Origin: an uncultured Planctomycetia bacterium | Lineage (GTDB): Bacteria > Omnitrophota > Gorgyraeia > Gorgyraeales > Gorgyraeaceae | DNA: 64,000 nt | Assembly: GCA_964415355.1 (NCBI GenBank) | Contig: CAYPYS010000002.1 | Location: forward strand, 8,048-72,047 | Reading direction: 5' to 3' | Shown: positions 1 through 44,703 of the stretch, in pieces | Numbering within the stretch: the first letter of the stretch is position 1 | Layout: each line of letters starts with the position of its first letter | Notes under the pieces: generated by a model | Databases searched by the model: none | Told to the model about the DNA's origin: nothing | What the model saw: only the letters and a program-made list of their open reading frames with translations | Position numbers and translations under genes: made by a program

Positions 1-86
1 TTTTAACGGGCGCAGGCCTGGACAGAAAAGAGATAGAAGAGGTCTTTAAGAATTCTGAAAAGTTGGTGCGCCGTCTCCAGCCCTAA
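1..86 (+). CDS. 3' end of an upstream gene (partial; ...EKLVRRLQP*). Stop TAA at 84-86 lies inside repeat copy 1
   Basis: open frame running into window start; stop embedded in palindromic element. Confidence 0.3.
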   Translation, partial: LTGAGLDRKEIEEVFKNSEKLVRRLQP

Positions 87-127
87 GTTTACATTTTAAC
101 AATGTTAAAATGTAAACTTAGGGCTGG
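77..127. repeat. palindromic intergenic element copy 1 (51-bp perfect-palindrome variant ccagccctaagtttacattttaacaatgttaaaatgtaaacttagggctgg)
   Basis: read directly; self-complementary. Confidence 0.85.
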
Positions 128-191
128 TCTTGACACAGTGTATTTATTATAGTATGCTTTATGGAAAGTATAAATATAAATGGAGGGGAAT

Positions 192-656
192 ATGATTAAG
201 ATAAGTTCTGCATTTATCATCTTTTTATTTTCAGCCTTTGTTTTAGCTGGTTGCGCTACAGATTACCAGGGTCGTTCGTACAGCGATGATTCAACCAGAG
301 GGAGATCTCTGGGCGTAGCCTCTATATTGCGTTTTGATGATATCCCGGTTCCAGCGGGATTCAAGACGCTTAATAATGAATCCTTTGCGTTTCAAAATGA
401 CGTTACAAGGGTGGCTTTGATCAAGTATTCAGGCTCAAAAAACGCAGACCAGATGGTACTGTTTTTCAAAGAACAGATGCCCCTTTATAACTGGAGCCCG
501 ATCAATATAATAGAGTACGAGCGCAGGATATTGAATTACGAAAAAGGCTCGGAAAGCTGCATAGTGACCATTGAATCCAGAGGCATGAGGAGCATCGTAA
601 CTATAGCTATTTCACCAAAATCAAGGCCAATGAAGGTCGAAACAAAGATAAACTGA
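192..656 (+). CDS. hypothetical lipoprotein (signal peptide plus lipobox LAGC)
   Basis: RBS ggagggg before ATG at 192; N-terminal hydrophobic stretch and LAGC. Confidence 0.5.
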   Translation: MIKISSAFIIFLFSAFVLAGCATDYQGRSYSDDSTRGRSLGVASILRFDDIPVPAGFKTLNNESFAFQNDVTRVALIKYSGSKNADQMVLFFKEQMPLYNWSPINIIEYERRILNYEKGSESCIVTIESRGMRSIVTIAISPKSRPMKVETKIN

Positions 657-669
657 AGCCAATTAAGTC

Positions 670-698
670 TTGACAACGTTGTATATATAAGGTATACT
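670..698 (+). promoter_or_regulatory. sigma70-like promoter (TTGACA-17-TATACT)
   Basis: consensus hexamers with 17-bp spacer upstream of the OMP gene. Confidence 0.5.
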
Positions 699-889
699 TC
701 TTTTTTAATAATAGGGTATGTTTGGATATACCGCCGTAGGCTGCTTTAATCAGGGCGAAGAAGGGAGGGAAAATAAAAACTAGAAAGCCTGAAGTAGTCA
801 AAAAAATTGGCGATATATTTATAAATGAAAAAATAATTTAGGTAATAGCCTAAAGATTTAATAAAGCAATAACCAAGGAGGAAAACTAA

Positions 890-2485: not shown

Positions 2486-2585
2486 ATTTAGGAACGAAAA
2501 GGCAAACCACTTGAAAGGGTGGGGCGCAAAATCACAGGCCTAAAGTCAGGACAGACTAAGGTGGCTGGATCGCCGAAACCAAAAA
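2486..2585 (+). promoter_or_regulatory. c-di-GMP-I (GEMM) riboswitch aptamer
   Basis: GGCAAACCACUUGAAAGGGUGGGGCGCAAAAUCACAGGCCUAAAG matches the Vc2 core (GGCAAACC..GAAAG.GUGGGACGCAAAGCC...GGCCUAAAC); GNRA tetraloop hairpin. Confidence 0.7.
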
Positions 2586-3083: not shown

Positions 3084-3124
3084 CTTAAGTATACATTTCA
3101 ACAATGTTAAAATGTATACTTAAG
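3084..3124. repeat. palindromic intergenic element copy 3 (gtatac variant)
   Basis: cttaagtatacatttcaacaatgttaaaatgtatacttaag; identical core to the copy at 34325. Confidence 0.8.
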
Positions 3125-5876: not shown

Positions 5877-7973
5877 ATGTCGGGCACTGGTTATAAAATC
5901 ATGACAAAGAAAAAAGCAATTTTAACAACTTTCCTTTCAATAATGCTTCTCTTGATAGCGCGGCCGTCTTTTGCCCGTAATCTCACCATTGTCTTTACAG
6001 GCGATACGCGCGGGGAAATAGAGAATTGCCATTGCCCTAAAGAAGATTATGGCGGACTGCCCAGAAGGGCCAAGTATATAGACGAGGTCAAGGAAGAGGT
6101 GGGAGATCTATTGCTCCTTGATACAGGGGATGTCTTGCAGCTTTACGCGTCGGATCTCGAAAAGAAGGATACCCTGCATAAGGCAGTTATATCTTTTAAG
6201 GCAATGGATATGATGAACTATTCTGTCATGAATGTAGGCGAAAGCGACTTTGTCTTGGGAGAAGATTTTTTAAGCGAGAGAGAATCAGTTGTTTCTTTTC
6301 CGTTTATCTCAGCCAACATAGTAGACAAAAATACAAAAGAGCTCTTTTTTGAGCCATATTTTGTAAAAGAAATGGAAAATGGCCTTAAGGTGGGAGTGAT
6401 CGGTCTTGTGAATGAGCGGTATGTAGTTAATTCGGATAAGCTGTCCATAATTCCGCATAAAGATGCAATTGACAGGTTCTTGCCGGAGCTAAAGGCCAGG
6501 TCAGACATAGTTATTGCCCTGGCTCATCTGGGATTGCCGTATTCTATAGAGCTTGCAAATTACACCAAAGACATCGATGTTATACTTAGCGGGCACTGGG
6601 ACGCAAATAGCCAGGAACCCATGAAGGTAAACAACTCGTTGGTTATGCCCACGACTTATCATTCGAGGAAGATAGGCAGGCTTAATCTTGAGGTCGGGAG
6701 AAAAGGCGTTTACTCTTATAGATGGGAGTCTACGCCGCTCGACGAAGATTATGACGGAAATACTATTTTTGAAGAGCTTATCGCTACAATGCCAGACTTA
6801 GGAGGCATAGAAGAGAAAAATGTTTTAGGCGGAAGCGAGACGTTTAATGGGACGCCTTTAAGGGTCTTTGTTTTTTATTCTCCTGGCTGCAGGGCATGCA
6901 TTGAGATAGAAAAAGACTTTTTGCCCGGGATCGAGGAAAAATATGGACCCCGGATAGCTCTGGAGCAGTATGACGTGAGCGTGTTAAAAAATTACGAACA
7001 GATGTTAAGGCTTGAGGAACTGTACGGGGTAGAGGAAGGCGGGTATGTCCCGGAGGTCATAGTTTCAGAATATGTTTTAATGGGTAAAGAAGATATAGTG
7101 GCTAATTTAGATGAGACAATACAGAAGGCCTTGATAGAGGCTAGTGAGTTAAAAAAAAACAATAAGGATTCAAAGGTAGAAGCAGTCGAGTATCAGTTGC
7201 CCACCGGTTCTCTTGTTTTATCCAGATTTCAATCGTTTAGCTTGTTCGCCGTCATGATGGCTGGTTTGTTGGACGGCGTAAATCCATGCGCCTTTACCAC
7301 CATAGTATTTTTTATCTCATTTCTTTCTCTCGTAGGATATAAGAGGCGCGAGATGTTTGCCGCAGGCTCTTCTTTTACCGTCGCTGTATTTATAGCGTAC
7401 TTGTTGATCGGCCTGGGCATCTTTAGATTTTTAAGGTCATTGCAAGGTTTTGGCCACGTGATTTATGCTATAAATATATTCATAGGCGGTTCGGCTTTTA
7501 TTCTCGGCATATTGAGTCTGGTGGATTATTTCAAATTCAAAAAAACCAAGGATCCCAAAAGTATCATATTGAAGCTACCGCAGTCTATCAAGAACAAGAT
7601 ACATTCGGTCATAGGCTCTGATTTCAGGCCAGGTCGGAAATCAGGCAAGAGAACGCTGTTGGGTATAGTATGGATCGCGTTTACAGCAGGTTTTATGGTT
7701 TCTGTGTTGGAATCCTTTTGTACTGGGCAGGTATATTTACCCACAATAGCCTTTGTGCTCAAAATGCCGGATAAAAAGACCCCAGCCTTTATATATCTGA
7801 TTCTTTACAATCTCGCTTTTATCGTGCCTCTTATAGTGGTTTTCTTTTTAGGGTTTTTTGGCGCCACTTCAAAGGCCTTTTCAAAATTCATGGAAAGACG
7901 TCTTGGCGCTGTTAAGCTTTGCACGGCCGCACTGTTTTTCCTGCTCGCCTCCGCCCTAATACTCTTCCGTTAA
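5877..7973 (+). CDS. fusion protein: N-terminal periplasmic domain(s) (metallophosphoesterase/thioredoxin-like) plus C-terminal DsbD/CcdA-type transmembrane domain
   Basis: LLDGVNPCAF motif typical of CcdA/DsbD TM region; about 9 C-terminal TM helices; alternative start ATG 5901. Confidence 0.45.
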   Translation: MSGTGYKIMTKKKAILTTFLSIMLLLIARPSFARNLTIVFTGDTRGEIENCHCPKEDYGGLPRRAKYIDEVKEEVGDLLLLDTGDVLQLYASDLEKKDTLHKAVISFKAMDMMNYSVMNVGESDFVLGEDFLSERESVVSFPFISANIVDKNTKELFFEPYFVKEMENGLKVGVIGLVNERYVVNSDKLSIIPHKDAIDRFLPELKARSDIVIALAHLGLPYSIELANYTKDIDVILSGHWDANSQEPMKVNNSLVMPTTYHSRKIGRLNLEVGRKGVYSYRWESTPLDEDYDGNTIFEELIATMPDLGGIEEKNVLGGSETFNGTPLRVFVFYSPGCRACIEIEKDFLPGIEEKYGPRIALEQYDVSVLKNYEQMLRLEELYGVEEGGYVPEVIVSEYVLMGKEDIVANLDETIQKALIEASELKKNNKDSKVEAVEYQLPTGSLVLSRFQSFSLFAVMMAGLLDGVNPCAFTTIVFFISFLSLVGYKRREMFAAGSSFTVAVFIAYLLIGLGIFRFLRSLQGFGHVIYAINIFIGGSAFILGILSLVDYFKFKKTKDPKSIILKLPQSIKNKIHSVIGSDFRPGRKSGKRTLLGIVWIAFTAGFMVSVLESFCTGQVYLPTIAFVLKMPDKKTPAFIYLILYNLAFIVPLIVVFFLGFFGATSKAFSKFMERRLGAVKLCTAALFFLLASALILFR

Positions 7974-8008
7974 CTTTACATTTCAACAACGTTAAAGTGT
8001 AAAGTTAA
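7971..8008. repeat. palindromic intergenic element copy 4 (contains stop TAA of the upstream gene)
   Basis: taactttacatttcaacaacgttaaagtgtaaagttaag. Confidence 0.85.
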
Positions 8009-8079: not shown

Positions 8080-8853
8080 ATGAGTCGTATATTGCTTCTT
8101 ATTTTACTTATGTGCGGGCTGTCTTCCTGTGTGAGCCAGGAGTACAATACTGCTACAGGCACAGAAGATATTATCTTTGTGTCTACCGAGAAAGAAATCG
8201 ATATGGGGCGTAACATAGCAGACGGTATTGAGAAAAACCCTGATATTACGCTGGATCCGGACCCTATAATGACAGAACGCGTCAAGCAGATCGGCGAAAA
8301 GATAGCGTCTGTTTCAGACAGAAAAGAGGTGTCTTATACTTTTAGGGTGATAGACGATGATGACGTTAACGCATTTGCTCTGCCAGGCGGGTATATATTT
8401 ATCTTCAGGGGCCTCATAGAGGAGACCGAGTCTGACGACGAACTCGCTTCGGTAATCGCTCATGAGATAGCGCATGTAGTAGCAAGGCATTCTGTCAAGC
8501 GCTTGCAAGGGGGGATCGGGTTTAATATTTTACAGATATTAATGGCAACCACGCGGGCGCAAAATACAAATAAGATCAACGCCGCTATCGGCCAGCTTGT
8601 AATGGCTTATTCAAGAGAAGACGAGGCGCTTGCTGATAAGATAGCGGTTAAATATTTAAGAGAATCAGGATACGACCCTATGGCAATGATATATTTTCTG
8701 GAAAAACTACAGGAGGTGCGAAGAAAGTCTCCTATCAGGACATACAGCGCGTATCGTTCGCACCCGCTTATTGCTAATCGCATACGAATGGTAAAGCAGG
8801 AGCTTACCGGAGAAGTAGAGTTTAGCGACTACATGAACAAGCCAATAGACTAA
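8080..8853 (+). CDS. M48-family zinc metallopeptidase lipoprotein (BepA/YcaL-like)
   Basis: HEIAHV HExxH motif; ALPGGYIFIFRGL; lipobox GLSSC. Confidence 0.7.
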   Translation: MSRILLLILLMCGLSSCVSQEYNTATGTEDIIFVSTEKEIDMGRNIADGIEKNPDITLDPDPIMTERVKQIGEKIASVSDRKEVSYTFRVIDDDDVNAFALPGGYIFIFRGLIEETESDDELASVIAHEIAHVVARHSVKRLQGGIGFNILQILMATTRAQNTNKINAAIGQLVMAYSREDEALADKIAVKYLRESGYDPMAMIYFLEKLQEVRRKSPIRTYSAYRSHPLIANRIRMVKQELTGEVEFSDYMNKPID

Positions 8854-8888
8854 CTTTACACTTTAACGTTGTTGAAATGTAAAGTTAA
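8851..8888. repeat. palindromic intergenic element copy 5 (opposite orientation; contains upstream stop TAA)
   Basis: taactttacactttaacgttgttgaaatgtaaagttaag. Confidence 0.85.
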
Positions 8889-9617: not shown

Positions 9618-10049
9618 ATGAAGAAGAAAAAAAAGAAGAAGGCCAGGAGACCCGTTAAGAGAAAAAAGAAGCCGGCTAAAAAGACAAAGAAGCGCAGGGT
9701 AGTTAAGAAGGCAAAGAAAAAGTCCATTAAAAGAAAGAAATCGACCAAGGCCAAGAAAAAAGTAGCCAGAAAGACTGTTTTGCCTCCGGGCGCATCGCTG
9801 GAAGAGATAGGGGTCGTGACTCATTATTTTTCTCATGTCGAGGCCGCTGTTATTAAAATGACCAGAGGTTCGCTTTCTCAGGGAGACACAATCGTTATTA
9901 AGGGGCACACGACTGATTTTAAGGAAAAGATAAACTCTATGCAGCTGGATCACGCGCCAATATCAAATGCAGTCGCGGGTCAGGAGATAGGCCTAAAGGT
10001 CAAGGCAAAGGTCAGAGAGCACGACACCGTCTATAAACTTATAGTCTAA
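9618..10049 (+). CDS. lysine-rich histone H1-like protein with C-terminal beta-barrel (EF-Tu domain-2-like) domain
   Basis: RBS gagagggggtgg; (K/R)-rich 60-aa N-terminus; the ORF-track start at 9573 is unlikely. Confidence 0.45.
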   Translation: MKKKKKKKARRPVKRKKKPAKKTKKRRVVKKAKKKSIKRKKSTKAKKKVARKTVLPPGASLEEIGVVTHYFSHVEAAVIKMTRGSLSQGDTIVIKGHTTDFKEKINSMQLDHAPISNAVAGQEIGLKVKAKVREHDTVYKLIV

Positions 10050-10119
10050 CTTTACACCCCGCTTTACTTCCTTAAGGACTCGCGGGGCATGCTTTAACGT
10101 TGTTGAAATGTAAAGTTAG
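10047..10119. repeat. palindromic intergenic element copy 6 interrupted by a 35-bp hairpin insertion (10057-10091)
   Basis: taactttaca [ccccgc...gcggggcatg] ctttaacgttgttgaaatgtaaagttag. Confidence 0.75.
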
Positions 10120-10265: not shown

Positions 10266-12050
10266 ATGGTAAATTACTCTAAAAGAGAAGATATAGGAGT
10301 AATCGAGTTTAACGATACGGATTCCAAGGTCAATCTCCTTTCGCGTGCAAATCTGGATGCATTAACGCATATCATAGATCGAATCATTGAGCAGGAAAAT
10401 CCCTTAAAATCTTTGTTTTTCGTCAGCAAAAAAGAGGATATATTCATAGCCGGCGCTGACATAAAGGAATTAGCAGAAATCCGCACGAGAGAACAGGCGC
10501 TTGAGCTGTGCAGGAAAGGCCAGGAGCTGTTCAATAAAATAGAAGGCCTGGATTTTCCTACCTTTGCGGTCGTAAACGGCGCATGTATCGGAGGGGGATT
10601 AGAGCTGGCTCTTTCTTGCAGGTATATTTTTTCCACTAATAACAAAAAAGTAAGATTCGGGCTTCCAGAGATAAAACTGGGGATTGTTCCAGGTTTTGGA
10701 GGGATCCATCGCCTGATACACAGGGTAGGGCTGCGTAGCGCCAACTCTCTTATTTTTTCAGGTAAGCTTATTAACGTAAAGGAAGCCCTGGATTTAGATC
10801 TTATAAGTCGAATCATCCCTGAGCCGCAGCAATTTTGTTACAAAAAACTCAACTCTTCTATGTGGCGGCCCGTTCACCGCGAAGAACCTGATCGGAAACT
10901 GACAGACGAGATCGAGAAGCATGAAAGAGAGATTTTAGCAGATAAGATACTTCAGGAGCATGCCAAAAATTCTTTTTCCGCGTATTTACTCGCAAGTAAA
11001 TATAAAAATTACAAGTGGGCTGACAATGGAACTGACAGAGAGTGTTCTGTGAATAGATGCGCGATCGCAGGCGCTGGCGCTATGGGCAGAGGTATTGCCT
11101 ATCTAGTAAGCTCTGAGATGGGCATATCAGTTGATTTAAGGGAAATAGACAAGGCTGCCCTGAAGAAAGCCAGGCTGTATATAAAAAGGGTTTATGATGA
11201 CGCGGTAGAAAGGGGCTTGTTGCGCCCGGCCGAAGCCAGGGGCAGATTCAAATGTATAGCCTTTGGAAACGGTTGCCTCAAGGAAGCAGATATAGTCATT
11301 GAAACAGTGACAGAGGACATTGCAACAAAAAAGAGTCTTTTTGCTAAAACAGAACCTGAGCTGCGGAAAAACTGTATCATAGCCTCAAACACATCCTGTA
11401 TCTCTATAAATGAATTAGCAAAATCTCTTGAACGGCCTGAAAATTTTATTGGAGTACATTTTTTTAATCCAGCTTATAAGATGAAACTGGTAGAAGTTGT
11501 TCCTTCAGAGCTTACAGACAGGTCGGTGATAGAGAGGACGATGCTTTTCTTGCAGAGACTCAGGAAAATACCTGTGATCGTAAAGGATAGCCCTGGATTT
11601 CTTGTTAATAGAATGCTCTTGCCTTACCTTAACGAGGCCCTGTTTATGTTGCAGGAAGGACATTCGGCAGAAGATATAGATGCTGCGATGCTTTGGTTTG
11701 GCATGCCGGTCGGACCGTTACGGCTTTTAAACGATATAGGGATAGGGGTGGTTTATAGGGCGAGCAGGATACTGGAGGATGGATTCGGGTCCAGGCTGAG
11801 AATGTCGAAGATGTTAGAGGAATTATTCGATCAAGGCAAGTCCTTAAATGCAAAAAATATTACCCATGACCTGAGGAAGACGCCTTTTCTTAAAAGTAAA
11901 TTATATCAAGACATTGTCAGTAGATTGCTTTTCCCTGTACAGAGAGAAGCTAGGCTTTGCCTGGAAGAGAAGGTCGTGGAGACCAAGGAGATCGTAGACC
12001 TGGCGTTGTTGCTTGGCGTCGGATTTCCCGGTTCCAAAAGGATCTGGTAA
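10266..12050 (+). CDS. fatty-acid oxidation multifunctional protein (enoyl-CoA hydratase plus 3-hydroxyacyl-CoA dehydrogenase), FadB/FadJ-like
   Basis: N-terminal crotonase fold; AGAGAMGRGIAY Rossmann motif; 3HCDH C-terminal domains. Confidence 0.75.
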   Translation: MVNYSKREDIGVIEFNDTDSKVNLLSRANLDALTHIIDRIIEQENPLKSLFFVSKKEDIFIAGADIKELAEIRTREQALELCRKGQELFNKIEGLDFPTFAVVNGACIGGGLELALSCRYIFSTNNKKVRFGLPEIKLGIVPGFGGIHRLIHRVGLRSANSLIFSGKLINVKEALDLDLISRIIPEPQQFCYKKLNSSMWRPVHREEPDRKLTDEIEKHEREILADKILQEHAKNSFSAYLLASKYKNYKWADNGTDRECSVNRCAIAGAGAMGRGIAYLVSSEMGISVDLREIDKAALKKARLYIKRVYDDAVERGLLRPAEARGRFKCIAFGNGCLKEADIVIETVTEDIATKKSLFAKTEPELRKNCIIASNTSCISINELAKSLERPENFIGVHFFNPAYKMKLVEVVPSELTDRSVIERTMLFLQRLRKIPVIVKDSPGFLVNRMLLPYLNEALFMLQEGHSAEDIDAAMLWFGMPVGPLRLLNDIGIGVVYRASRILEDGFGSRLRMSKMLEELFDQGKSLNAKNITHDLRKTPFLKSKLYQDIVSRLLFPVQREARLCLEEKVVETKEIVDLALLLGVGFPGSKRIW

Positions 12051-12086
12051 CTTTACACTTTAACGTTGTTGAAATGTAAAGTTAGG
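12048..12086. repeat. palindromic intergenic element copy 7
   Basis: taactttacactttaacgttgttgaaatgtaaagttaggg. Confidence 0.85.
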
Positions 12087-14814: not shown

Positions 14815-14949
14815 ATGAAGAAAGCATTGCTTATGATTTTATTGTTAATTTTGATCCCTGCTGTAGCAACGGGTTGTGCCCGTACGAAGCGCATTGCCAA
14901 TGACATCGATTGGGTTGTCTTTGACGGCGAACCCAAGAAAGACAACTAA
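14815..14949 (+). CDS. 44-aa lipoprotein-like peptide (MKKALLMILLLILIPAVATGCAR...), stop TAA inside repeat copy 8
   Basis: RBS aaggagaagcag; lipobox ATGC; not in ORF track (<60 aa). Confidence 0.25.
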   Translation: MKKALLMILLLILIPAVATGCARTKRIANDIDWVVFDGEPKKDN

Positions 14950-14985
14950 CTTTACATTTCAACAACGTTAAAGTGTAAAGTTAGG
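14947..14985. repeat. palindromic intergenic element copy 8
   Basis: taactttacatttcaacaacgttaaagtgtaaagttaggg. Confidence 0.85.
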
Positions 14986-29855: not shown

Positions 29856-31388
29856 ATGAGGGATATGGGGAAGTCCGGAGTTACAGGCATAGCGCGGGAT
29901 TATTTTGATTATATGGCGAGGAATTATCCTGTGATGTGCATGAGCGATGAATTTTATTTCTTCCCGAGGGCGAAGAAGGCAATTGAATATCCGGATATCC
30001 TGGATAGCCTTGATGAAGACAAGATCAAGCAGGATGTCTCGCGCATAAAAAGTCTTAAAAGTAGACTCGAAAAAATAAACCTTCCTGGTACAGACATCGA
30101 AGCGCATATCGATTTTTCTCTCCTCAAACAAAGCATGTCGACATTTTTAAGGGAATTCGGCCAGGTCAAGATATGGCAGACAGATCCTAGTATTTACTTG
30201 AAGATTTCCCTTTTGGGTTGTTGTCTATCAATCAAAAGAATTTCTCAAATACCGCGCTTACTGCAAGAGGGAAAGAGGAATTTAAAAAATGTTCCCGCGG
30301 CCTACCTTGAAGTTGCCAGAGAAATGACAGATGCTTCAATAGCATACCTAGGTTTTGTTGATTTTTCTGGCATAGAGACCAGGTCGATAAAAAAGGCAAT
30401 AGAGGCATTGGAGGAGTTTAAAAGATTTTTGATAAAAATGCCTTCGAGAGACATTATTATTAAAGATAAGAGTCTTATAGAAAGCATATTGAGGGATTCT
30501 TTTTCTTGCGATAAGGATCTTAATGAGATCTTTGAGATAGCATACGAAGAATATCGCAGGACGCTCGAAGAATTAAAGGATGTTGCGGGTAGCGTGAAGG
30601 CTGGGGCGGGATGGAAAAATATACTCTCCGAACACAATATGACTGCAAAGACGCCTGAAGCGCTGTTGACTATGTATACTGATGAAATAAAAAAATTAAA
30701 GGGATTTATTAAAGAAAAAGATGTGATCACTATCCCTGAGATGCAGGACATAGCCGTTGAGTTTACCCCTAAATTTCTGAGGCCTATAAGGGCTTCGGCG
30801 TCCTATAGATCTCCGGTCACAGGGGACAGGCGCGAAGCCGCTTATTTTTACATAACAGCTGATTTCAGCAACGTACACAATGAGTACATATTTGTAAGTG
30901 CGCATGAGACATATCCAGGGCATCACTTATTGGATTCTATAAGACGAGGCATGGAGAACCCTGTCAGGCAGCAGGTCGAATCTCCTTTGTTTTACGAAGG
31001 CTGGGCTTCTTATAGCGAAAGGCTTATTGATAGATTAGGGTATATAAAGGATCCTGTGCATAAGTTATTGGGATTAAAACGCCAGGCGTGGAGGGCTGTA
31101 AGGGCAATGCTGGATGTTGGCATCAGGATCGATAAATTAAAATTTAAAGAGGCTGAGGGCCTGCTTATAGATTTAGGCTATGAACCAAAGATAGCCAGGT
31201 TTATGTTCAGGCATTACGCGCTTTCGCCGGGATATCAGCTGTGCTATACTGTTGGTAAATTCGAGATCGACAGGTTAAGGCAGAAATTTTCTTCTAAGCT
31301 GGGCCTGAAAGGATTTCACGATCTACTTTTGCAGGGCGGCGAGGCTCCGTTCGAGTTGATCGAAAAGAGATTAGAAAGACAAAGTTAG
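29856..31388 (+). CDS. DUF885-family protein (putative metallopeptidase)
   Basis: HETYPGHH motif typical of DUF885. Confidence 0.5.
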   Translation: MRDMGKSGVTGIARDYFDYMARNYPVMCMSDEFYFFPRAKKAIEYPDILDSLDEDKIKQDVSRIKSLKSRLEKINLPGTDIEAHIDFSLLKQSMSTFLREFGQVKIWQTDPSIYLKISLLGCCLSIKRISQIPRLLQEGKRNLKNVPAAYLEVAREMTDASIAYLGFVDFSGIETRSIKKAIEALEEFKRFLIKMPSRDIIIKDKSLIESILRDSFSCDKDLNEIFEIAYEEYRRTLEELKDVAGSVKAGAGWKNILSEHNMTAKTPEALLTMYTDEIKKLKGFIKEKDVITIPEMQDIAVEFTPKFLRPIRASASYRSPVTGDRREAAYFYITADFSNVHNEYIFVSAHETYPGHHLLDSIRRGMENPVRQQVESPLFYEGWASYSERLIDRLGYIKDPVHKLLGLKRQAWRAVRAMLDVGIRIDKLKFKEAEGLLIDLGYEPKIARFMFRHYALSPGYQLCYTVGKFEIDRLRQKFSSKLGLKGFHDLLLQGGEAPFELIEKRLERQS

Positions 31389-31428
31389 CCTAAGTTTACA
31401 CTTTAACGTTGTTGAAATGTAAAGTTAA
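31389..31428. repeat. palindromic intergenic element copy 15
   Basis: cctaagtttacactttaacgttgttgaaatgtaaagttaacg. Confidence 0.85.
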
Positions 31429-31440
31429 CGAGGTGTAAGA

Positions 31441-32817
31441 ATGACAAAGGAGTTTTTAGGGTATCACTCTGAATGGAATCTGGGCAGCCCCGGTGGCTGG
31501 GATTACCAGAAAATGGCCCAGGAGATCGGCAAGATCGCATGGGCGAGGATAAAAAAGAACAGCGGCGTGGATGTCGAGCTGGATTTCGATGACCCGATAT
31601 TAAACCCTGTGCCAAATTTTGCAGAGCTTCTTATGAGGGCGCATCAGAGGAATTTTCCCAAAGAAGACGCTTTTATTGCTATTGTGGCGGAGAAAGAGAC
31701 ACTGGATAAAGTAGGAGAAAATATAAGATTTACCGGGTATCTCAACAGCCTTCCGGGCGTCAAGGCGGTTTTGGTCGACCCGACCAGATTAGAACTGAAA
31801 GATGGCAAGGTTTGCGTCGGTGGGGATAGGTTGACAGCTGTTTTTTTGGATTTTAACAACAATGTCATTGTGAGGTTGAAAAAAACGCATAATATCAATG
31901 GGCTTCTGTCAGCTATAGAGCAGGACTTGGTCACGAATCCAAGAGGCATGGAGCCTGTAGGTGCAAAAGGCGTCTTTGAGATAGTGACTTCAGAGTATAA
32001 AGACAAGCTGTCAGATACGACTGTCAGTAGGACGCCGTGGACAAGGCAGTTTTATAAGCGCGCTACGATAGGGCCTGATGGCAAAGATATCCCTGATCTA
32101 GTGAAATGGGTCAAGGATAATTGGGCTGAAATTATATTAAAACCAGTCCACGGCTATTCCGGAAAAGGCATTATTATAGGACACAAGGAACCTGATAAAG
32201 AAGCAGCCTGTGAGCGCGCGCTAAAAGCCGGCGATTACATTGTGCAGCCACTTGTGCCTATGGATCTGTGGGCTGAGGAATTTCCGTGGATAGACAGAGA
32301 CAAGAAAAGACTTTTTATAAAGCGCTGGCAGACTGATTTTCGCTGCTTTATAACAGATGTCGGGCTCATCGGTTTTGTGACAAGATTCGGCGGGATTCCT
32401 ACGAATGTCGGCTGTGGCGGAGGCGTCCAGAGCAGCGCGATACTGCGCTCTAAGATATCCATAAAAGATGCGGTCAAAAGGGTCAATGAGGCGATTTTGA
32501 ATCTTGGGTTTGATTTTGCCTTGGAGCTGCAGCAGGAGATGGACAAGAGATCCGTAGAGATAGGCAATGTTTATTTGCTAGGGCCTTTGATGAACACATT
32601 AAGGCCGCGTATTATTAATGAGGCGCATGTTGGGCAATTAAAAGAATACGCTCAAAATCTATGGAAGGACGCATTGGTTTTAGAGAAATTATGGATAGAA
32701 GGCAAACTTACTAAGTATGCGCAGATCAGCAAAGCAGAGGAGGACATAGCAAAGCTGGCCTCGTGGAGGGGCAAGCCGGCTTTGCTAGCCTCGGATGGCT
32801 TATTCGGCTTTATCTAA
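31441..32817 (+). CDS. ATP-grasp-fold protein (RimK/glutathionylspermidine-synthase-like), function unknown
   Basis: KPVHGYSGKGI and DFRCFITDVG...GGIPTNVGCGGG resemble ATP-grasp motifs. Confidence 0.4.
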   Translation: MTKEFLGYHSEWNLGSPGGWDYQKMAQEIGKIAWARIKKNSGVDVELDFDDPILNPVPNFAELLMRAHQRNFPKEDAFIAIVAEKETLDKVGENIRFTGYLNSLPGVKAVLVDPTRLELKDGKVCVGGDRLTAVFLDFNNNVIVRLKKTHNINGLLSAIEQDLVTNPRGMEPVGAKGVFEIVTSEYKDKLSDTTVSRTPWTRQFYKRATIGPDGKDIPDLVKWVKDNWAEIILKPVHGYSGKGIIIGHKEPDKEAACERALKAGDYIVQPLVPMDLWAEEFPWIDRDKKRLFIKRWQTDFRCFITDVGLIGFVTRFGGIPTNVGCGGGVQSSAILRSKISIKDAVKRVNEAILNLGFDFALELQQEMDKRSVEIGNVYLLGPLMNTLRPRIINEAHVGQLKEYAQNLWKDALVLEKLWIEGKLTKYAQISKAEEDIAKLASWRGKPALLASDGLFGFI

Positions 32818-32853
32818 CTTTACATTTCAACAATGTTAAAGTGTAAAGTTAGG
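32815..32853. repeat. palindromic intergenic element copy 16
   Basis: taactttacatttcaacaatgttaaagtgtaaagttaggg. Confidence 0.85.
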
Positions 32854-34313: not shown

Positions 34314-34324
34314 CGCTTCCCTGT

Positions 34325-34361
34325 TAAGTATACATTTCAACAATGTTAAAATGTATACTTA
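34325..34361. repeat. palindromic intergenic element copy 17 (gtatac variant)
   Basis: taagtatacatttcaacaatgttaaaatgtatactta. Confidence 0.8.
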
Positions 34362-34401
34362 TGAGGTGCGGTTGTAGGCTGAAAATGTGAAATTGTGCAA
34401 T

Positions 34402-34451: not shown

Positions 34452-34545
34452 GCTCCGTAAAAGGGCAACTTATCTGAAAGGGTAAGGCGCAAAGCCAGGT
34501 GCCTAAAGCCGCATGAAGCGGACAAGGTCGACCAGCTGCCGTAGA
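34452..34545 (+). promoter_or_regulatory. c-di-GMP-I (GEMM) riboswitch aptamer no. 2
   Basis: GGGCAACUUAUCUGAAAGGGUAAGGCGCAAAGCCAGGUGCCUAAAGCCGC matches the GEMM core; GNRA hairpin. Confidence 0.7.
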
Positions 34546-35268: not shown

Positions 35269-35290
35269 ATCTCTTTTGATTTTACCCCGC

Positions 35291-35329
35291 TAACTTTACA
35301 ATTTAACGTTGTTGAAATGTAAAGTTAGG
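35291..35329. repeat. palindromic intergenic element copy 18
   Basis: taactttacaatttaacgttgttgaaatgtaaagttaggc. Confidence 0.85.
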
Positions 35330-36401: not shown

Positions 36402-36441
36402 CCTAAGTTTACACTTTAACGTTGTTGAAATGTAAAGTTAG
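36402..36441. repeat. palindromic intergenic element copy 19
   Basis: gcctaagtttacactttaacgttgttgaaatgtaaagttag. Confidence 0.85.
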
Positions 36442-38758: not shown

Positions 38759-38956
38759 CCTAAGTTTACAATATAACACAAGTTACTCGCTTCGCTCGTA
38801 ACTTGTTTCAAAGGGGTTTTACCCCTATGACGCTACGCAATGTTTCTTTTCGTCACATTGCTCCACTGTTACCCCTCGAGGGACTGCCTGCAGCCCCTCG
38901 AGCTCCCCAGTTGCATGGAATTTTAATTCCATGCAATGTTGAAATGTAAAGTTAGC
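38759..38956. mobile_element. expanded (about 196-bp) structured variant of the palindromic element (MITE-like), copy E2
   Basis: collinear with E1; compensatory change gcaatgt/acattgc vs gcaatgc/gcattgc. Confidence 0.7.
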
Positions 38957-39144
38957 ACATAATCCCCCTCCTTGAAAGTAAGCGCTTTCTATGGTATACT
39001 AATAATATAAAAGATCATCCACATTCTTTCGGAAATAGTTGTTTTTGTTTCTGACATATCTAAGACAGAGTTAAGTTTTATTTAATATTTTTAGAGAAAA
39101 AATAATACAAAAGGTCGCTTTTTCTTAAGGGAGGTTTTTTCTCT

Positions 39145-41307
39145 ATGAAAACCAAGCGCAGCGTTACTAAGCGCTCTGTGAACGAAGCAGTACGCATGCA
39201 CAAACGTATTGTTGCTGCTTATAACATGACAGAGCGCCCTAGGGACCAGCTAAAAAAACTAAGTGAATGCTTTGCTAATTTCGGCGTAAACCCTGAGGAA
39301 AATATAAATCATCTGGTAAAGGTATGCGGGGAATTAATGGGCGCTGACTGCGCGCTCTATAATCGTCTGGAGGAAGACGCGCTTTATTCAATAGGCGTAT
39401 GGAATGTGCCTGATGGATTCAACCCCTGCATGAAGCCCCCTGAGGGATACATATGTTACGATTTAATCAAAAAAGAAGATGTCCAGATGTTTGTACTCCG
39501 CAATCTCTTAAAGACGAAATATGCGAAGACAGATCCGTATGTAAAAGAATACGGGCTCCGGACATATATAGGGCATGTGGTTAAATTAGGAGATATTCGT
39601 TTTGGCGCGCTATGCGTTGTTTACCAGAAAGACTTTGTTCCTCATAATGAAGAAAGACAGCTGATGGGAGCTATTGCCTCGGCAATTGCAACAGAGGAAC
39701 AGCGCAGGAAAGAAGAAAGCTATATTCGGAGGAGCGAAGAGGAGTTCAGGCTGGCTTTTGAGAGCGCCAAGGATGCCATATTTTGGGCAGATCCAAAGAC
39801 AGGCATTATAATAAGATGCAATAAGGCGGCAGAACTCCTTTTGGAAAAAACAAGAGATGAAATAATAGGCATCCATCAAACAGACCTTCATCCTGCGTCG
39901 ATGAAAAAGTATCACGCTTCTCAATTCAAGGACCACATAAAAATGAAAAGCGCGATTGATGCCTATGCAGAAGTAATAACCAAGTCAGGCAAGATCAAAC
40001 CCGTCCACATAACATCCTCTACTACTATTGTAGCCGGGCGAGATGTTATACAGGGCATCTTCCGGGATATTACAGAAATCAAGCGCAACGAGATGACCTT
40101 AAAACGTATGAACAGGAAACTGTTAGCGTTTAACCGCAGGCTGCATAAATTATCCCTTAAGGATCCTCATACAGGTCTATATAATCATAATTATTTCGGA
40201 GAGATCATAGAATCAGAATTTTATCGCGCCAAGAGAAACGTCCAGCCGCTTTCCATGATAATGATAGATATAGATTATTTCAAATCACTGAATGACGCAT
40301 ACGGGCATTCGTTCGGAGACTTCATCTTAAAACAATTTTCAAGGAAACTCAGGAAGTCCGTGCGGCTGCATGACCATGTCATAAGATTTGGCGGAGAGGA
40401 ATTTGCGATAGTGCTGCCAATGGCCAACAGGACTGATGCCCTGACCCTGGCAAAAAGGATAGCTGGTTTTATGAAAGGGCATAGTTTCGGGAACAAGAAA
40501 AACAGCATCAAATTAAAATTGAGCCTTGGTGTTTGTTCCTATCCTGACGATAACAGCATTTTTAAGAGTTCTGATTTTATCGAGGTGGCAGAGCGTATAT
40601 TGTCGAAGGCGAAGGAACTGGGAGGGGACAGGATATGCGATGTCAAGGATATAAAGGATAACGGATATTTTCCAAACAAGGTGCCGGAAGGATTGAGCGT
40701 ATCATTCATGAAACGAAAGCTTTCAGACATCACTATGCAGGTAAATCAGAGCCTTACAGAATCCATATTTGCTTTTGCAAAAACCATTAAATGTAAAGAT
40801 AGGTATGCCGGGCAGCATGTAGAGAAGACTGTTTTTTATGCCACAGAGATAGCGAAGAAGTTAGCGTTGCCCGAGGAGGATATCAGGATTATCGAGCAGG
40901 CAGCTATATTGCACGATCTGGGCAAGATAGGGATAAGTGAAAAGATCCTGCTCAAGAAAAAAAATCTTACAACTAAGGAATTCAGAAAGATAAAAGACCA
41001 CCCAAAAATAGCAATCGATATAATAAGGCCTATAAAATCCCTGCATGGTTTGATACCGTTGATCCTTTATCATCACGAGAGGTGGGATGGTAATGGTTAC
41101 CCCAGCGGTCTAAAAGGCAGAGAGATCCCGGTCGGCGCGCGCATAATCGCTATAGCGGATGTCTATCAGGCATTGACTTCAGACCGGCCATACCGCAAGG
41201 CGTTTTCAGAAAAAAAGGCGCTTAGTATAATCAGAGATAATTCTGGTACACAATTTGATCCTGAAATCGCATATGAGTTTTTGAATATCTTAGGAGAAAA
41301 GGAATAG
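39145..41307 (+). CDS. multidomain c-di-GMP turnover protein: N-terminal sensor plus PAS plus GGDEF (RFGGEEF) plus HD-GYP
   Basis: RFGGEEF; HDLGK...HHERWDGNGYP. Confidence 0.7.
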   Translation: MKTKRSVTKRSVNEAVRMHKRIVAAYNMTERPRDQLKKLSECFANFGVNPEENINHLVKVCGELMGADCALYNRLEEDALYSIGVWNVPDGFNPCMKPPEGYICYDLIKKEDVQMFVLRNLLKTKYAKTDPYVKEYGLRTYIGHVVKLGDIRFGALCVVYQKDFVPHNEERQLMGAIASAIATEEQRRKEESYIRRSEEEFRLAFESAKDAIFWADPKTGIIIRCNKAAELLLEKTRDEIIGIHQTDLHPASMKKYHASQFKDHIKMKSAIDAYAEVITKSGKIKPVHITSSTTIVAGRDVIQGIFRDITEIKRNEMTLKRMNRKLLAFNRRLHKLSLKDPHTGLYNHNYFGEIIESEFYRAKRNVQPLSMIMIDIDYFKSLNDAYGHSFGDFILKQFSRKLRKSVRLHDHVIRFGGEEFAIVLPMANRTDALTLAKRIAGFMKGHSFGNKKNSIKLKLSLGVCSYPDDNSIFKSSDFIEVAERILSKAKELGGDRICDVKDIKDNGYFPNKVPEGLSVSFMKRKLSDITMQVNQSLTESIFAFAKTIKCKDRYAGQHVEKTVFYATEIAKKLALPEEDIRIIEQAAILHDLGKIGISEKILLKKKNLTTKEFRKIKDHPKIAIDIIRPIKSLHGLIPLILYHHERWDGNGYPSGLKGREIPVGARIIAIADVYQALTSDRPYRKAFSEKKALSIIRDNSGTQFDPEIAYEFLNILGEKE

Positions 41308-41368
41308 TTTTTATCCCTCCCTTGTCTTTAATTCCTTCTTATGATAACATGATAAAAAGGCGTTTGCC

Positions 41369-41410
41369 CCTAACTTTACATTTCAACAACGTTAAAGTGT
41401 AAAGTTAGGC
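41369..41410. repeat. palindromic intergenic element copy 21
   Basis: cctaactttacatttcaacaacgttaaagtgtaaagttaggc. Confidence 0.85.
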
Positions 41411-42332: not shown

Positions 42333-42524
42333 ATGCCAGGATATATCTGTCCGAATTGTAAAAAGCCTATTTATGATGACGAGGCCTTGCTGTGCCTTTA
42401 TTGCGGAGACAGCCTTAAGCGCAGCGTAGGCTTTATGGGGAAGTTTAAATATCCGACGCCAAGAGTGATGCTGCTGATTATTATTGCGCTGACGCTCCTG
42501 GCTTTTTTATTATTAATATTATAG
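42333..42524 (+). CDS. small zinc-ribbon protein with C-terminal TM helix
   Basis: CPNC...CLYC. Confidence 0.3.
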   Translation: MPGYICPNCKKPIYDDEALLCLYCGDSLKRSVGFMGKFKYPTPRVMLLIIIALTLLAFLLLIL

Positions 42525-42537
42525 AAAGGAGTGGCGC

Positions 42538-43002
42538 ATGAAAAGAATCGTGCTTTTAGCTTTTGGTTTGGTTTTAATTGTTGCTGCGACAGCAATGGCT
42601 ATTCAACTGCCCGGTGTCGAGAACATTAAGGAAGATATGCCCGTTGGAGCTAAAAAGATCGCAGAGTCTTTTTCCAAGGCAGTGCTGGATAGGATTAGCG
42701 ACAAAACAGGGGTCCTTGAAAAAGATATCGAGGCGTATTTTCTTAGTATGGCCGTGATATTGATAAACGGAGGATTGGAGGTTAAAGAAGCAGAAGAGGT
42801 AATTGATAGGTCACTGCCTCTATATGAGACTTTTCTTGCAGAGATCATGGATGGAAACAAGCCAGATCCTTATATAAATACTTATATTGACAGGGTCCAG
42901 AAATTACTCAAAGAGTTTGGTTTTAGCAATGACGATACAACCAAGCTACTCATTCTTATAAAAAACCATTTCTTTAAACTATGGGAATCTATCGGTAGGT
43001 GA
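42538..43002 (+). CDS. secreted hypothetical protein
   Basis: signal peptide AMA-IQ. Confidence 0.4.
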   Translation: MKRIVLLAFGLVLIVAATAMAIQLPGVENIKEDMPVGAKKIAESFSKAVLDRISDKTGVLEKDIEAYFLSMAVILINGGLEVKEAEEVIDRSLPLYETFLAEIMDGNKPDPYINTYIDRVQKLLKEFGFSNDDTTKLLILIKNHFFKLWESIGR

Positions 43003-43028
43003 TAAGGTGTAAACTTAAGTGAGTAAAT

Positions 43029-44258
43029 ATGAAGAGAAATATTTTAAAACCTGAGCTTGTTTCGCCTGCAGGGGATTGGCCTTCATTGGTCGCTGCAGTG
43101 GAGGGCGGGGCGGATAGTGTATATTTTGGCGTAAAGATCCTCAATATGAGGAACCTGGCGGCTAACTTTGACGTAACAGAGCTTCCGAAGATAATGAAAT
43201 TCCTACGCGATAATGATAAAAAAGGCTATCTGGCTCTTAACGTGATAGTCATGGATAAGGAGCTTGCCAAGGTAGAGAGGATATTGCGCGCTGCGAAAAA
43301 AGCAGACGTAGACGCGGTTATATTATGGGATATGGCTGTTTTTTCTATAGCGAAGAGACTAGGCTTAAAGATCCATCTTTCAACGCAGGCCAGTGTCTCC
43401 AATAAAGAGGCGCTTTTGTTTTTTTCCAAGCTAGGCGCCAGAAGGGTAGTGCTGGCGAGAGAATGTTCCTTGGGGGATATAAAGGAGATCTCGAATTATA
43501 TCGCGAAAAAGCGCTTGAACTGCGAAATAGAAACGTTTATTCACGGCGCCATGTGCGTGAGCGTCTCAGGTAGATGTTTTTTATCCGAACATTCGTTTGG
43601 GAGGTCAGCGAATCGAGGCCAGTGCCTCCAGCCGTGCCGCAGGGAATATTATATTTCCGATGTAGAGGGGGAGGTTTCTTATCGCTTAGGCAAAGATTAT
43701 ATTTTAAGCCCAAAGGATTTGTGCGTGATCGATTTTATTGATGAACTGCTCGCGGCGGGCATGCACGCGCTTAAGATAGAAGGAAGGATGAAGTCTGCGG
43801 AATACACGAGAGTAGTGACGTTTGTTTATAGAAAAGCGATAGATCTTGCTTTAAAAGGTGCGCTTTCAGAAAAGCTAAAAAAGGATCTTAAAAAAGAATT
43901 AGAGGCAGTTTATAACCGCGGATTTTCAAAGGGGTTTTTATTTGGCGTTCCCGTGGGAGAGATAAGTAAAGGCGGAGAACATACTCACGAGAAAGTCTTT
44001 ATAGGCGAGGTGACAAAGTTTTTCAAGAAGATAAGCGTTGCCCGGATAAAGATATTTGATCATGCTTTTAAGGTGGGAGACGATATAATGTTTATCGGGA
44101 AAAACACGCCTGCCCGGGCTGCCTCGGTAAGCCAGATCGAACACAGGCATAAGCCCAGAAAAAAGGCCTTAAAGGGCGAGGAAGTCGGCGTAAAACTCCC
44201 TTTTTTTGTAAGGCAGAACGACAAAGTATTTCTCTGGCGTAAGAAACTTAGATCATGA
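43029..44258 (+). CDS. peptidase U32 family protein
   Basis: EIETFIHGAMCVSVSGRCFLS U32 signature. Confidence 0.75.
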   Translation: MKRNILKPELVSPAGDWPSLVAAVEGGADSVYFGVKILNMRNLAANFDVTELPKIMKFLRDNDKKGYLALNVIVMDKELAKVERILRAAKKADVDAVILWDMAVFSIAKRLGLKIHLSTQASVSNKEALLFFSKLGARRVVLARECSLGDIKEISNYIAKKRLNCEIETFIHGAMCVSVSGRCFLSEHSFGRSANRGQCLQPCRREYYISDVEGEVSYRLGKDYILSPKDLCVIDFIDELLAAGMHALKIEGRMKSAEYTRVVTFVYRKAIDLALKGALSEKLKKDLKKELEAVYNRGFSKGFLFGVPVGEISKGGEHTHEKVFIGEVTKFFKKISVARIKIFDHAFKVGDDIMFIGKNTPARAASVSQIEHRHKPRKKALKGEEVGVKLPFFVRQNDKVFLWRKKLRS

Positions 44259-44668
44259 CTATATTCAATGTAACCAGCGAAAAAGAAGACGTTTTAAAAG
44301 CTAAGATGGAGTCTCTCAACATAAAAGAAAGAGACATAGAGGAAAGGTTTATCCGCGCGAGCAAGAAGGGCGGACAAAAGGTCAATAAGACTTCCTCGTG
44401 CGTTTATCTTAAGCACAGGCCTACGGGAATAGAGGTCAAGTGCCAGAGAGAGCGCTCCCAGGCATTAAACAGGTTTCTGGCCAGAAGGATACTCGCTGAT
44501 AAGATCGAGTCGCTCGTCCTGGGCAAAAAGGCAGCGGAGCAAAAGAGAATAGAAAAGATAAGGCGCCAGAAGAGGAGGCGCTCCCGCCGCGCAAAAGAAA
44601 AGATGCTCAGGTATAAAAAAATCCGATCTCAAAAAAAGGAGCTGCGCAGGCCGCCCGCGCTGGCCTAA
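44255..44668 (+). CDS. arfB: alternative ribosome-rescue factor ArfB (GGQ peptidyl-tRNA hydrolase with basic C-tail)
   Basis: GGQKVNKT motif; about 137 aa; K/R-rich C-terminus; stop TAA inside repeat copy 23. Confidence 0.7.
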   Translation: MTIFNVTSEKEDVLKAKMESLNIKERDIEERFIRASKKGGQKVNKTSSCVYLKHRPTGIEVKCQRERSQALNRFLARRILADKIESLVLGKKAAEQKRIEKIRRQKRRRSRRAKEKMLRYKKIRSQKKELRRPPALA

Positions 44669-44703
44669 GTTTACACTTTAACGTTGTTGAAATGTAAAGT
44701 TAG
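44664..44703. repeat. palindromic intergenic element copy 23 (last copy in window)
   Basis: gcctaagtttacactttaacgttgttgaaatgtaaagttag. Confidence 0.85.

Follow-up and report, generated by a model that had tools for sequence, protein, structure and literature searches.

Between the genes of a 64-kb stretch of DNA from an uncultured Omnitrophota bacterium (contig CAYPYS010000002.1, positions 8,048 to 72,047 of the forward strand; the whole of this stretch is hereafter the window) lies a 39-bp, imperfectly palindromic repeat that very probably represents a lineage-specific family of the repetitive extragenic palindrome (REP) type, i.e., short non-autonomous DNA tied to a single Y1/HUH transposase, or REP-associated tyrosine transposase (RAYT), encoded elsewhere. 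The arrangement corresponds to the REP/RAYT system that Ton-Hoang et al. reportedly described in Escherichia coli in 2012 as the "REPtron" and has the structural hallmarks of that kind, with an unusual density and placement. The first-pass annotation of the window could attach no family name to the repeat; its kind can nonetheless be named, as REP-type repeats with a RAYT, and the transposase gene could not be seen by that earlier reader because it lies outside the window. What is new here is this repeat family in uncultured Omnitrophota, the REP/RAYT kind itself being already known.

Structure and Spread of the Repeat Family

When the window was searched with the 18-nt arm CTAACTTTACAYTTYAAC at up to two mismatches, 38 matches were found against 0.01 expected from dinucleotide shuffles, and two further copies, of a GTATAC type, appeared once three arm mismatches were allowed. 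In agreement with the count first given for these 44.7 kb, the window holds 22 copies (19 compact ones of 39 bp and three interrupted ones), plus one decayed remnant, all between 77 and 44703 (Table 1); past 44703 there is no copy within the window. The compact unit consists of an 18-nt arm, a 3-nt loop and a second 18-nt arm, the arm length counting two irregular positions, so that 16 Watson-Crick pairs are formed. The loop reads AAC or AAT in one orientation and GTT in the other. The consensus, the two loop orientations and the combination of one C.A and one G.T irregularity stand as first described; exactly one of each is found in 13 of the 19 compact copies. Oriented compact copies have a mean pairwise identity of 92%. 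The three interrupted copies retain the same arms around an insert, which is a 34-nt GC hairpin in one and about 157 bp of structured sequence, standing where the loop would be, in the other two. Also borne out were the identity of the two GTATAC copies (3085 and 34324), which share identical 37-bp cores, the 51-bp palindrome at 77-127, which has perfect 24-bp arms, and the occupation of about half of the gaps, as copies lie in 21 of the 45 inter-gene gaps before 45 kb and, when only the 31 gaps that reach 30 bp are counted, again in 21.

The density of about one copy per 2-3 kb is several-fold above that of E. coli. The repeat is very dense, as first remarked, but the earlier claim of a density above that of typical repeat families is only partly fair: about one copy per 2-3 kb is at the top of the range of REP-rich genomes such as those of Stenotrophomonas and Pseudomonas fluorescens and does not lie beyond the kind. 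Two other kinds of element were rejected. A clustered regularly interspaced short palindromic repeats (CRISPR) array had already been dismissed and is dismissed again, as entire genes (0.6-4.8 kb) take the place of spacers, copies point either way and they are dispersed among syntenic housekeeping genes. An intrinsic terminator is excluded by the AT-rich stem (the window's true terminators are GC-rich with T-runs) and by the scarcity of downstream TTTT, which within 12 nt on the + strand follows only copy 14946, or one of 19, and on the other strand copies 12047 and 24874; the earlier view that the repeats are not classic terminators is upheld.

The best named homologues of the window proteins belong to Candidatus Omnitrophota, and contigs near-identical to the window were found in several Joint Genome Institute (JGI) and European Nucleotide Archive (ENA) metagenomes. 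A scan for the core pattern, which took one genome per species, returned at least 51 stretches; among the matches listed, 49 belong to the metagenome-assembled genome (MAG) CAYULJ01, one to Omnitrophota UBA10183 and one to another MAG. CAYULJ01, mislabelled "Planctomycetia," is a sister species of the window's host, with about 82% nucleotide identity, conserved gene order and 86% identity of a 458-residue protein. At least 109 compact copies were counted in 326 kb of this MAG, spread over more than 45 contigs, and they follow a consensus of their own, CTTAAGTTTACACTTYAAC-AWT-GTTRAAGTGTAAACTTAAG. More distant relatives (74% amino acid identity) have no copy in 21 kb. Because of this contrast, the family is genome-wide and lineage-specific, and it is not confined to this locus, single or few copies being found in other Omnitrophota as well. 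The dispersal also bears on an integron-like cassette array with the repeats as attC sites, which might be suspected where functionally unrelated genes run in one direction and an imperfect palindrome comes after each of them, its centre, YAAC...GTTR, faintly echoing attC core sites. However, both orientations occur, the copies of the sister MAG lie among housekeeping genes whose order holds in relatives without repeats, no integrase was seen, and AAC/GTT is central in the element rather than terminal. The likelihood of such an array is close to nil, and it is taken as refuted by copy dispersal and conserved gene order.

A Y1/HUH Transposase Flanked by Repeats

Among 409 predicted proteins of the window and the related loci, screened for an HUH motif with a Y...NP motif after it, one passed: a 263-residue protein encoded at locus L040 of CAYULJ01 (open reading frame (ORF) 1560-2351), with the motifs NHIH, HIHLLL and YIHHNP. 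It matches Pfam Y1_Tnp (PF01797; E = 1.2e-8, 35.6 bits against a cut-off of 23) and ends in a C-terminal helix-turn-helix (HTH) domain at residues 229-260 (HTH_23, E = 5e-5; HTH_7, E = 1.3e-3; HTH_28, E = 2e-3); HTH matches in Pfam are also precomputed for many of its homologues. Since its sole NCBIfam match is NF047646, "REP-associated tyrosine transposase" (E = 1e-17), yet falls below that family's cut-off, the protein is to judge from its sequence a relative of this RAYT family rather than an equivalog. An AlphaFold2 model built from 32 homologues (predicted local distance difference test score, pLDDT, 86.5) was matched best by Foldseek, among entries of the Protein Data Bank (PDB), to 4ER8, a structure of the E. 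coli RAYT in complex with a REP hairpin (E = 1e-6, target TM 0.75); the transposases of IS200, IS608 and ISDra2 came next. H76, H78 and Y135 are invariant in the 32 homologues and a YxWSS motif, here YRWSS, is invariant or nearly so; this motif and the HTH tail resemble, at the sequence level, those of TnpA_Y1 subclass 2.1. The transposase clade is widespread in Omnitrophota, which top some 1,200 database matches. In the 326 kb of CAYULJ01, an incomplete genome, there is one Y1 gene only, and its cluster was seen on one contig.

The L040 gene has a repeat copy 20 nt upstream of its ATG, and its 3' end runs into a second copy, which gives the last six codons and the stop. Because flanking in a dense genome could be chance, homologues from other genomes were examined. 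The L064 homologue (75% identical) has GTATAC-type copies on both flanks. Upstream of the L065/L066 homologue (78% identical) lies a GTATAC-type copy with the window-specific CTAAG...CTTAG ends and an AAC loop, visible on the upstream side only, as the contigs end on the other; the sample series that yielded these two loci also yielded the window-strain contigs L053 and L055, and their transposase gene probably belongs to the window's own species. At L068, which has about six copies in 21 kb, three stand in the gap directly upstream of the Y1 gene and one directly downstream, and at L069 three to four of the five copies adjoin the gene; both loci share the gene context hom-thrC, RAYT, HTH_3. 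The sequence upstream of the Y1 gene is conserved among L040, L064 and L065. At L067, the Y1 homologue is found inside the atp (ATP synthase) operon and is flanked by a different 39-bp hairpin family, TAATGAAACAAAACAGGTA-ATA-TACCTGTTTTGTTTCATTA, with two of its three full copies at the gene and the third, plus two half-arms, elsewhere in the 16.6-kb locus. Repeats are thus physically associated with a RAYT-like gene in five lineages.

Hairpin, Subfamilies and Longer Variants

The predicted folding energy as RNA is -13 to -15 kcal/mol for the window-type hairpin and -18 to -22 kcal/mol for the sister-type hairpin, and as DNA -8 to -9 kcal/mol; no shuffled sequence was as stable. Across 44 distinct variants, 95.7% of the stem positions are paired as against 89.6% in shuffles (0 of 500 reaching the observed value), and six of the 17 stem pairs show changes on both sides, e.g., 4/34 (G-C/C-G) and 7/31 (U-A/C-G/A-U). 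Stem pairing is kept by compensatory changes, although template switching can also maintain palindromes. Subfamilies with both arms altered (TTCACA/TGTGAA, GTATAC) each occur at several unlinked loci, and variants of 39, 62, 74, about 120 and 196 bp have common termini around differing interiors. The 196-nt composite is predicted to fold as RNA into a closing stem with five hairpins (free energy -81.6, z -10.5); it has no Rfam match at E <= 0.1 and none in phage and plasmid collections. With the whole window searched against Rfam at gathering score, only three c-di-GMP-I riboswitches and no repeat were matched, and the IMG/VR collection held no match to the repeat sequences. The conserved repeat ends, (C)CTAAC and CTTAAG, are themselves paired. 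At one place in the sister MAG (L006 6830-6913), another palindromic repeat, AAATAGGGACAGACACCTATTT...AAATAGGTGTCTGTCCCTATTT, adjoins a lone right arm of the family; it may represent yet another family of small repeats, or else a chimeric copy.

The symmetric 18-bp half-sites at a fixed 3-bp spacing, together with quasi-regular dispersion and the HTH domain of the associated protein, would also suit arrayed sites to which a dimeric DNA-binding or nucleoid-structuring protein attaches (an insulator, or sites like those of gyrase or integration host factor (IHF)), selected on double-stranded DNA, and the bacterial interspersed mosaic elements (BIMEs) of E. coli do bind IHF and gyrase. However, the compensatory arm changes preserve pairing and not a fixed motif, internal inserts of up to 157 bp are tolerated, and copies are absent from close relatives and from the right-hand 20 kb of the window; binding sites are accordingly a very improbable explanation.

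Gain, Loss and Decay of Copies Between Relatives

Orthologous sites were compared between the window and CAYULJ010000002.1 (L070) of the sister species over 20 kb (Table 1). Of the five compact sites that both species have occupied, four hold in each genome a copy of that genome's own subtype, while copy 31390 is of the same subtype in both; stem pair 4/34, for example, is G-C in the sister species versus C-G or G.G in the window. Homogenisation or turnover of resident copies is likely. The first orthologous pair (44665) was suggestive of concerted evolution and the wider comparison mixed, and copy identity at shared sites is mostly at or below the level of the flanks, with 31390 as the exception. 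In the 28996 gap, a 196-bp composite in one species faces a 62-bp variant in the other, and therefore interiors can be swapped or inserted at a resident copy. The repeats may further mark or mediate gene gain and loss at 38760-41408, a region where the sister species has an unrelated small ORF (L070 11016-11460) in place of the PAS-GGDEF-HD gene.

Neither the third, equidistant lineage (L058) nor the more distant L056 and L057 have a copy at junctions 31390 and 32814; in all three, junction 31390 is a gene overlap and junction 32814 is a gap of at most 18 nt with a single GTGCTTAAGG, and unoccupied orthologous sites in general bear one CTTA(A/G) motif. Relative to L058 3040-3140, where the genes overlap by ATGA, the window (31360-31452) and the sister species are longer by about 56 bp instead of 39, made up of 5 nt with a new TAG stop, the hairpin and 11-12 nt, which in the window include a new Shine-Dalgarno (SD) sequence. 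Among eight same-species contigs from other samples (99.7-100% identical), no copy has been gained or lost. In one 99.7%-identical strain (L053 1-2618), synteny with the window is lost exactly at 10046, the left end of the interrupted copy, which reflects a rearrangement or else contig assembly across the repeat; contig L055 ends at the same base. A protein-anchored metagenome scan for orthologous loci gave one match, which was uninformative. Copies have thus been gained, lost and decayed between relatives, and the orthologous-site comparisons point to gain at pre-existing (C)TTAA/TAA motifs, often a stop codon, persistence across speciation, likely homogenisation or replacement, and decay.

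The same comparisons lend something to the idea of a miniature inverted-repeat transposable element (MITE) reduced to its terminal inverted repeats (TIRs) and mobilised by a transposase of the DDE class (resembling those of IS630/Tc1, IS5 or piggyBac), TA or TTAA being duplicated at the target, with the 39-bp form as the minimal two-TIR derivative of longer elements such as those of 196 bp. The single CTTA(A/G) at unoccupied sites would be expected of such an element, as would the same termini around interiors of 3, about 26, 34, about 80 and 157 nt, the marking of either end by TA in the window or by TTAA in the sister MAG, enclosed by C...G, and the presence of both copy orientations. However, in about 0.5 Mb of incomplete genomes there is no long or kb-scale element with these arms and no arm-adjacent DDE transposase, and the sole co-localising transposase, in five lineages with low-copy genomes included, is of the Y1/HUH type. 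In addition, the palindrome spans the putative duplication (CTTAAG in the sister MAG), which would require an improbably specific 6-bp target at one per 3 kb, and the compensatory changes in both arms suit hairpin recognition better than two independent TIR sites. A DDE-mobilised origin is therefore considered improbable. A "miniature TIR-only MITE" came closest among the roles offered in the first-pass annotation; the term implies, however, a DDE transposase working on double-stranded inverted repeats, whereas the one transposase found together with these repeats is of the single-strand HUH type, which recognises hairpins.

Placement Between Genes and Possible Effects on RNA

All 128 compact copies of the window and the sister MAG are intergenic, and 105 of the 115 that can be classified lie between co-directional genes, which make up 88% of all gene pairs there. 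In the window 7 of 17 copies, and in the sister MAG 29 of 88, lend their terminal TAA to the upstream gene as its stop, and an internal TAA serves as the upstream stop in five more sister-MAG copies. Between the end of the element and the following start codon there are mostly 10-26 nt, enough to accommodate an SD sequence and little else. Copies occur in both orientations, as first noted, with 9 versus 8 in the window and 31 versus 57 in the sister MAG (p = 0.007), where the sense strand of asymmetric copies has U.G rather than C.A in 37 versus 14 cases. Some public gene calls start within repeats, for example a 229-residue call at 8872 (versus 8905) and a 326-residue transposase call in L069 at 10001 (versus about 10070); the SD-preceded downstream ATG is the likelier start.

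This placement raises the question of whether the repeat might be a selected RNA element of polycistronic transcripts (a 3'-end stabiliser, an RNase III or RNase E site, or a translational decoupler), its association with a transposase being incidental. Nearly all copies stand in co-directional, probably transcribed gaps, exactly between stop and SD; the predicted RNA hairpin is stable; the classic terminators of the genome look different from the repeat; the U.G preference in the sister MAG points the same way; and the REPs of E. coli do have RNA-level effects (PMC3733652). However, there is no orientation preference in the window species, close relatives do without copies at the same junctions, copies decay, and the identity of copies at shared sites, 31390 excepted, is mostly no higher than that of their flanks. 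The clustering at the Y1 gene in low-copy genomes would also go unexplained, and the orientation bias could come from replication or mutation, all of which makes a purely RNA-selected element distinctly improbable. Secondary RNA effects of a REP-type repeat, such as transcript stabilisation or the uncoupling of formerly overlapping genes, are possible, a hint being the orientation bias of the sister MAG. A further variant, which is rather unlikely, is that the REP population has been co-opted as inter-cistronic punctuation, with copies under RNA-level selection and the HTH-bearing Y1 protein as a domesticated maintainer. Each copy may then give a TAA stop, a hairpin and a fixed run-up of the 10-26 nt mentioned above and uncouple genes that overlap in relatives; this is hinted at by the U.G bias and by copy 31390, of which 37 of 39 positions are conserved despite the overall divergence of the two species. 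If it were true and the protein fell in subclass 2.1, this would be the first link of a large REP-less subclass to a hairpin repeat.

A Proposed Model for REP-Type Mobility

The present data allow a model of REP-type mobility to be proposed, in which it is by analogy that the enzyme is taken to move the repeats and to act on single-stranded DNA, and that its catalysis and target motif are assigned; the analogy is with the E. coli RAYT-REP complex and IS200/IS605 (PMC3479197, PMC6006769). As single-stranded DNA, the repeat would fold into a hairpin with an imperfect 18-bp stem, which the Y1 enzyme would recognise, the conserved C.A and G.T irregularities being plausible recognition features. 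The Y1 tyrosine would cleave near the (C)TTAA ends of the repeat, and the cut unit would be joined beside a similar (C/T)TAA motif elsewhere. Selection would then spare only harmless copies, in a compact co-directional genome those lying after a TAA stop and ahead of the SD of the following gene, and the surviving copies may diversify into subfamilies, take internal inserts, and decay or be replaced.

Several observations weigh against a REP-type family with its own RAYT. The window contains no transposase gene. The protein scores 64, 56.7 and 53.1 bits (E from 1e-17 to 3e-14) against NF047646, below its 80-bit equivalog cut-off, and when the PDB was queried by sequence, first with the protein alone or with a profile built on it, nothing significant was obtained for the catalytic domain and HUH transposases were not reached. 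In the two dense genomes, about one third of the gaps are occupied, so that the flanking of a single gene could be chance there, and the argument for an association of repeat and transposase rests on the low-density genomes. The evidence assigning L065/L066 to the window's own species consists of the sample series and the repeat subtype, on contigs shorter than 1 kb. Moreover, the ORFs of these loci (L065 274-963, L066 163-852) end at 229 residues, before the HTH, and in both independent assemblies the sequence stops 5 nt further on, which reflects a disruption of the gene by a repetitive sequence or simply a contig break at this point. Strains sharing more than 99.9% identity do not differ in their insertions and hence give no sign of current activity. 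The variants, with their common termini and variable interiors, look MITE-like, and the palindromic ends (TA, TTAA, CTTAAG) make a DDE target-site duplication inseparable from a Y1-type insertion beside a target motif. Position-frequency tables of the 19 and 109 copies with 12-nt flanks reveal no GTAG or CGTC tag, and the HTH-bearing TnpA_REP proteins of subclass 2.1 are reported to be without REPs in their vicinity (PMC6006769).

Relation to Known Systems

The closest likeness is to the REP/BIME elements of E. coli and their RAYT (TnpA_REP, 4ER8; PMC3479197). Both systems have imperfect extragenic palindromes of 20-40 bp in high copy number, a single Y1/HUH gene flanked by repeats, and conserved hairpin irregularities, and the E. 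coli RAYT is the best structural match of the Omnitrophota protein. However, the Omnitrophota repeat is without the 5' GTAG tag and has an AT-rich stem of 18-19 bp with nearly complete symmetry, while the protein has an extra C-terminal HTH and scores below the NCBIfam RAYT cut-off. A GTAG or CGTC tag marks two described REP super-families, outside which the untagged Omnitrophota repeats fall (PMC3733652). The REPINs and RAYTs of P. fluorescens (PMC3116915, PMC5581495) are likewise non-autonomous repeat populations with master-sequence-like subfamilies, which persist across species at orthologous sites as the present repeats do, and their RAYTs are single-copy, vertically inherited and at a conserved locus, to which the shared context of L068 and L069 is a parallel. 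A REPIN, however, comprises two inverted REP hairpins around a spacer, whereas the common Omnitrophota unit consists of a single hairpin with non-palindromic arms; its minority variants of 62-196 bp are readable as arms plus spacer in the manner of a REPIN.

With TIRtrons and TIRYTs (PMC3733652) and TnpA_Y1 subclass 2.1 (PMC6006769), the Omnitrophota protein has in common a class-2 Y---NP, a serine motif after the catalytic Tyr and a C-terminal HTH_23/HTH_28-like domain. TIRYT flanks are described as inverted sequences, some of them self-complementary and moderately repeated (PMC3733652), while the Omnitrophota flanks are complete stand-alone hairpins of 39-41 bp present at hundreds of copies. 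The motif GGGGWSAS, reported for most TIRYT flanks, is absent from the hairpin copies, and a G run before the ATG in L040 and L064 misfits it. As in IS200/IS605 and their palindrome-associated transposable element (PATE) derivatives, an HUH/Tyr single-strand transposase recognising imperfect hairpins is proposed here, and the insertion of IS200/IS605 beside a short target motif without duplication would fit the (C/T)TAA association. However, the Omnitrophota transposase does not appear to be multi-copy and is not inside a mobile unit with distinct ends, and its predicted fold is closer to RAYT than to IS608 or ISDra2. Correia/NEMIS, RUP and Nezha MITEs are similarly small, abundant and intergenic; they too have TIRs and TA within their ends, and at times they provide stop codons or change the expression of adjacent genes, but they are 100-400 bp long, DDE-derived and make true target duplications, whereas the partner of the Omnitrophota repeat is a Y1 enzyme.

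No description of this family was found in the searchable literature on Omnitrophota/Omnitrophica repeats, and REP/RAYT systems are there treated in cultured bacteria and sequenced isolate genomes, with no mention of Omnitrophota; the kind is thus extended to an uncultured and often ultra-small-celled phylum. Since copy number ranges among related species from a handful to one per 2-3 kb, a natural experiment on REP explosion in a compact genome is at hand, and the pairing of an HTH-bearing transposase with untagged, symmetric hairpins bears on the substrate of the large HTH subclass of TnpA_REP. For annotation and assembly, it matters that the repeats break contigs, shift start-codon calls and donate stop codons.

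Table 1. Repeat copies of the window, orthologous sites of the sister species (CAYULJ01; L070) and loci of the second hairpin family
Feature	Position	Context	Sister species
Copy 1	77-127	Core 83-121, loop AAT; flanks lengthen core to 51-bp palindrome with 24-bp arms	
Compact, loop AAC	2397-2435	After GC-rich terminator hairpin (2357-2390), before c-di-GMP-I riboswitch at 2491	
Compact, GTATAC subtype	3085-3123	Same subtype flanks transposase gene in L064, L065	
Compact, loop AAC	7970-8008	TAA 7971-7973 is stop of ORF 5877-7973	
Compact, loop GTT	8850-8888	TAA is stop of ORF 8080-8853; then SD GAGGAGG, ATG at 8905	
Interrupted	10046-10119	GC-rich 34-nt hairpin inside left arm	
Compact, loop GTT	12047-12085	Stop of ORF 10266-12050; next ATG 10 nt past copy end	
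Compact, loop AAC	14946-14984		
Compact, loop GTT	17169-17207	Sole copy in a divergent gap	
Compact, loop GTT	20000-20038		
Compact, loop GTT	22005-22043	G.G mismatch at pair 4/34	
Compact, loop AAC	24874-24912	Stop of ORF 23816-24877	
Compact, loop AAC	27990-28028	Stop of ORF 27490-27993	Occupied; gap filled by sister's own subtype
196-bp composite	28996-29191	Family arms around five internal hairpins	62-bp variant (L070 1003-1060), other interior, opposite orientation
Compact	31390-31428	Between DUF885 gene and 458-residue gene	Occupied, 37/39 identical
Compact	32814-32852	Stop of 458-residue gene; absent in L056, L057, L058	Occupied, central part (core) inverted
Compact, GTATAC subtype	34324-34362		
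Compact, loop GTT	35290-35328		Occupied
Compact, loop GTT	36403-36441		
Second 196-bp composite	38760-38955	About 89% identical to first; left border of PAS-GGDEF-HD gene 39145-41307	Gene absent
Compact, loop AAC	41370-41408	Right border of extra gene 39145-41307	Gene absent
Decayed remnant, right half only	43001-43017		Full copy
Compact	44665-44703	Stop of ORF 44255-44668	Occupied
Sister-species copy	L070 1768	Window: one CTTAG motif, no copy	Occupied
Second 39-bp hairpin family	L067 5674-5712, 6620-6662, 15749-15799; L069 20547-20587		

Other Features of the Window

A right-hand, low-GC (32-40%) block on the minus strand, 49917-63987, is free of any repeat copy and encodes ParB_N, a Dam-type D12 methyltransferase, an N6/N4 methyltransferase, PEGA/SHOCT, a transglutaminase and a 992-residue radical-SAM protein; it is probably a recently acquired island. 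The three c-di-GMP-I riboswitch aptamers are located at 2491-2577 (+), 34454-34543 (+) and 18722-18859 (-), with 73, 62.5 and 54.4 bits, respectively, and their occurrence within 64 kb together with several GGDEF, PilZ and MshEN genes suggests heavy c-di-GMP signalling in this Omnitrophota genome.

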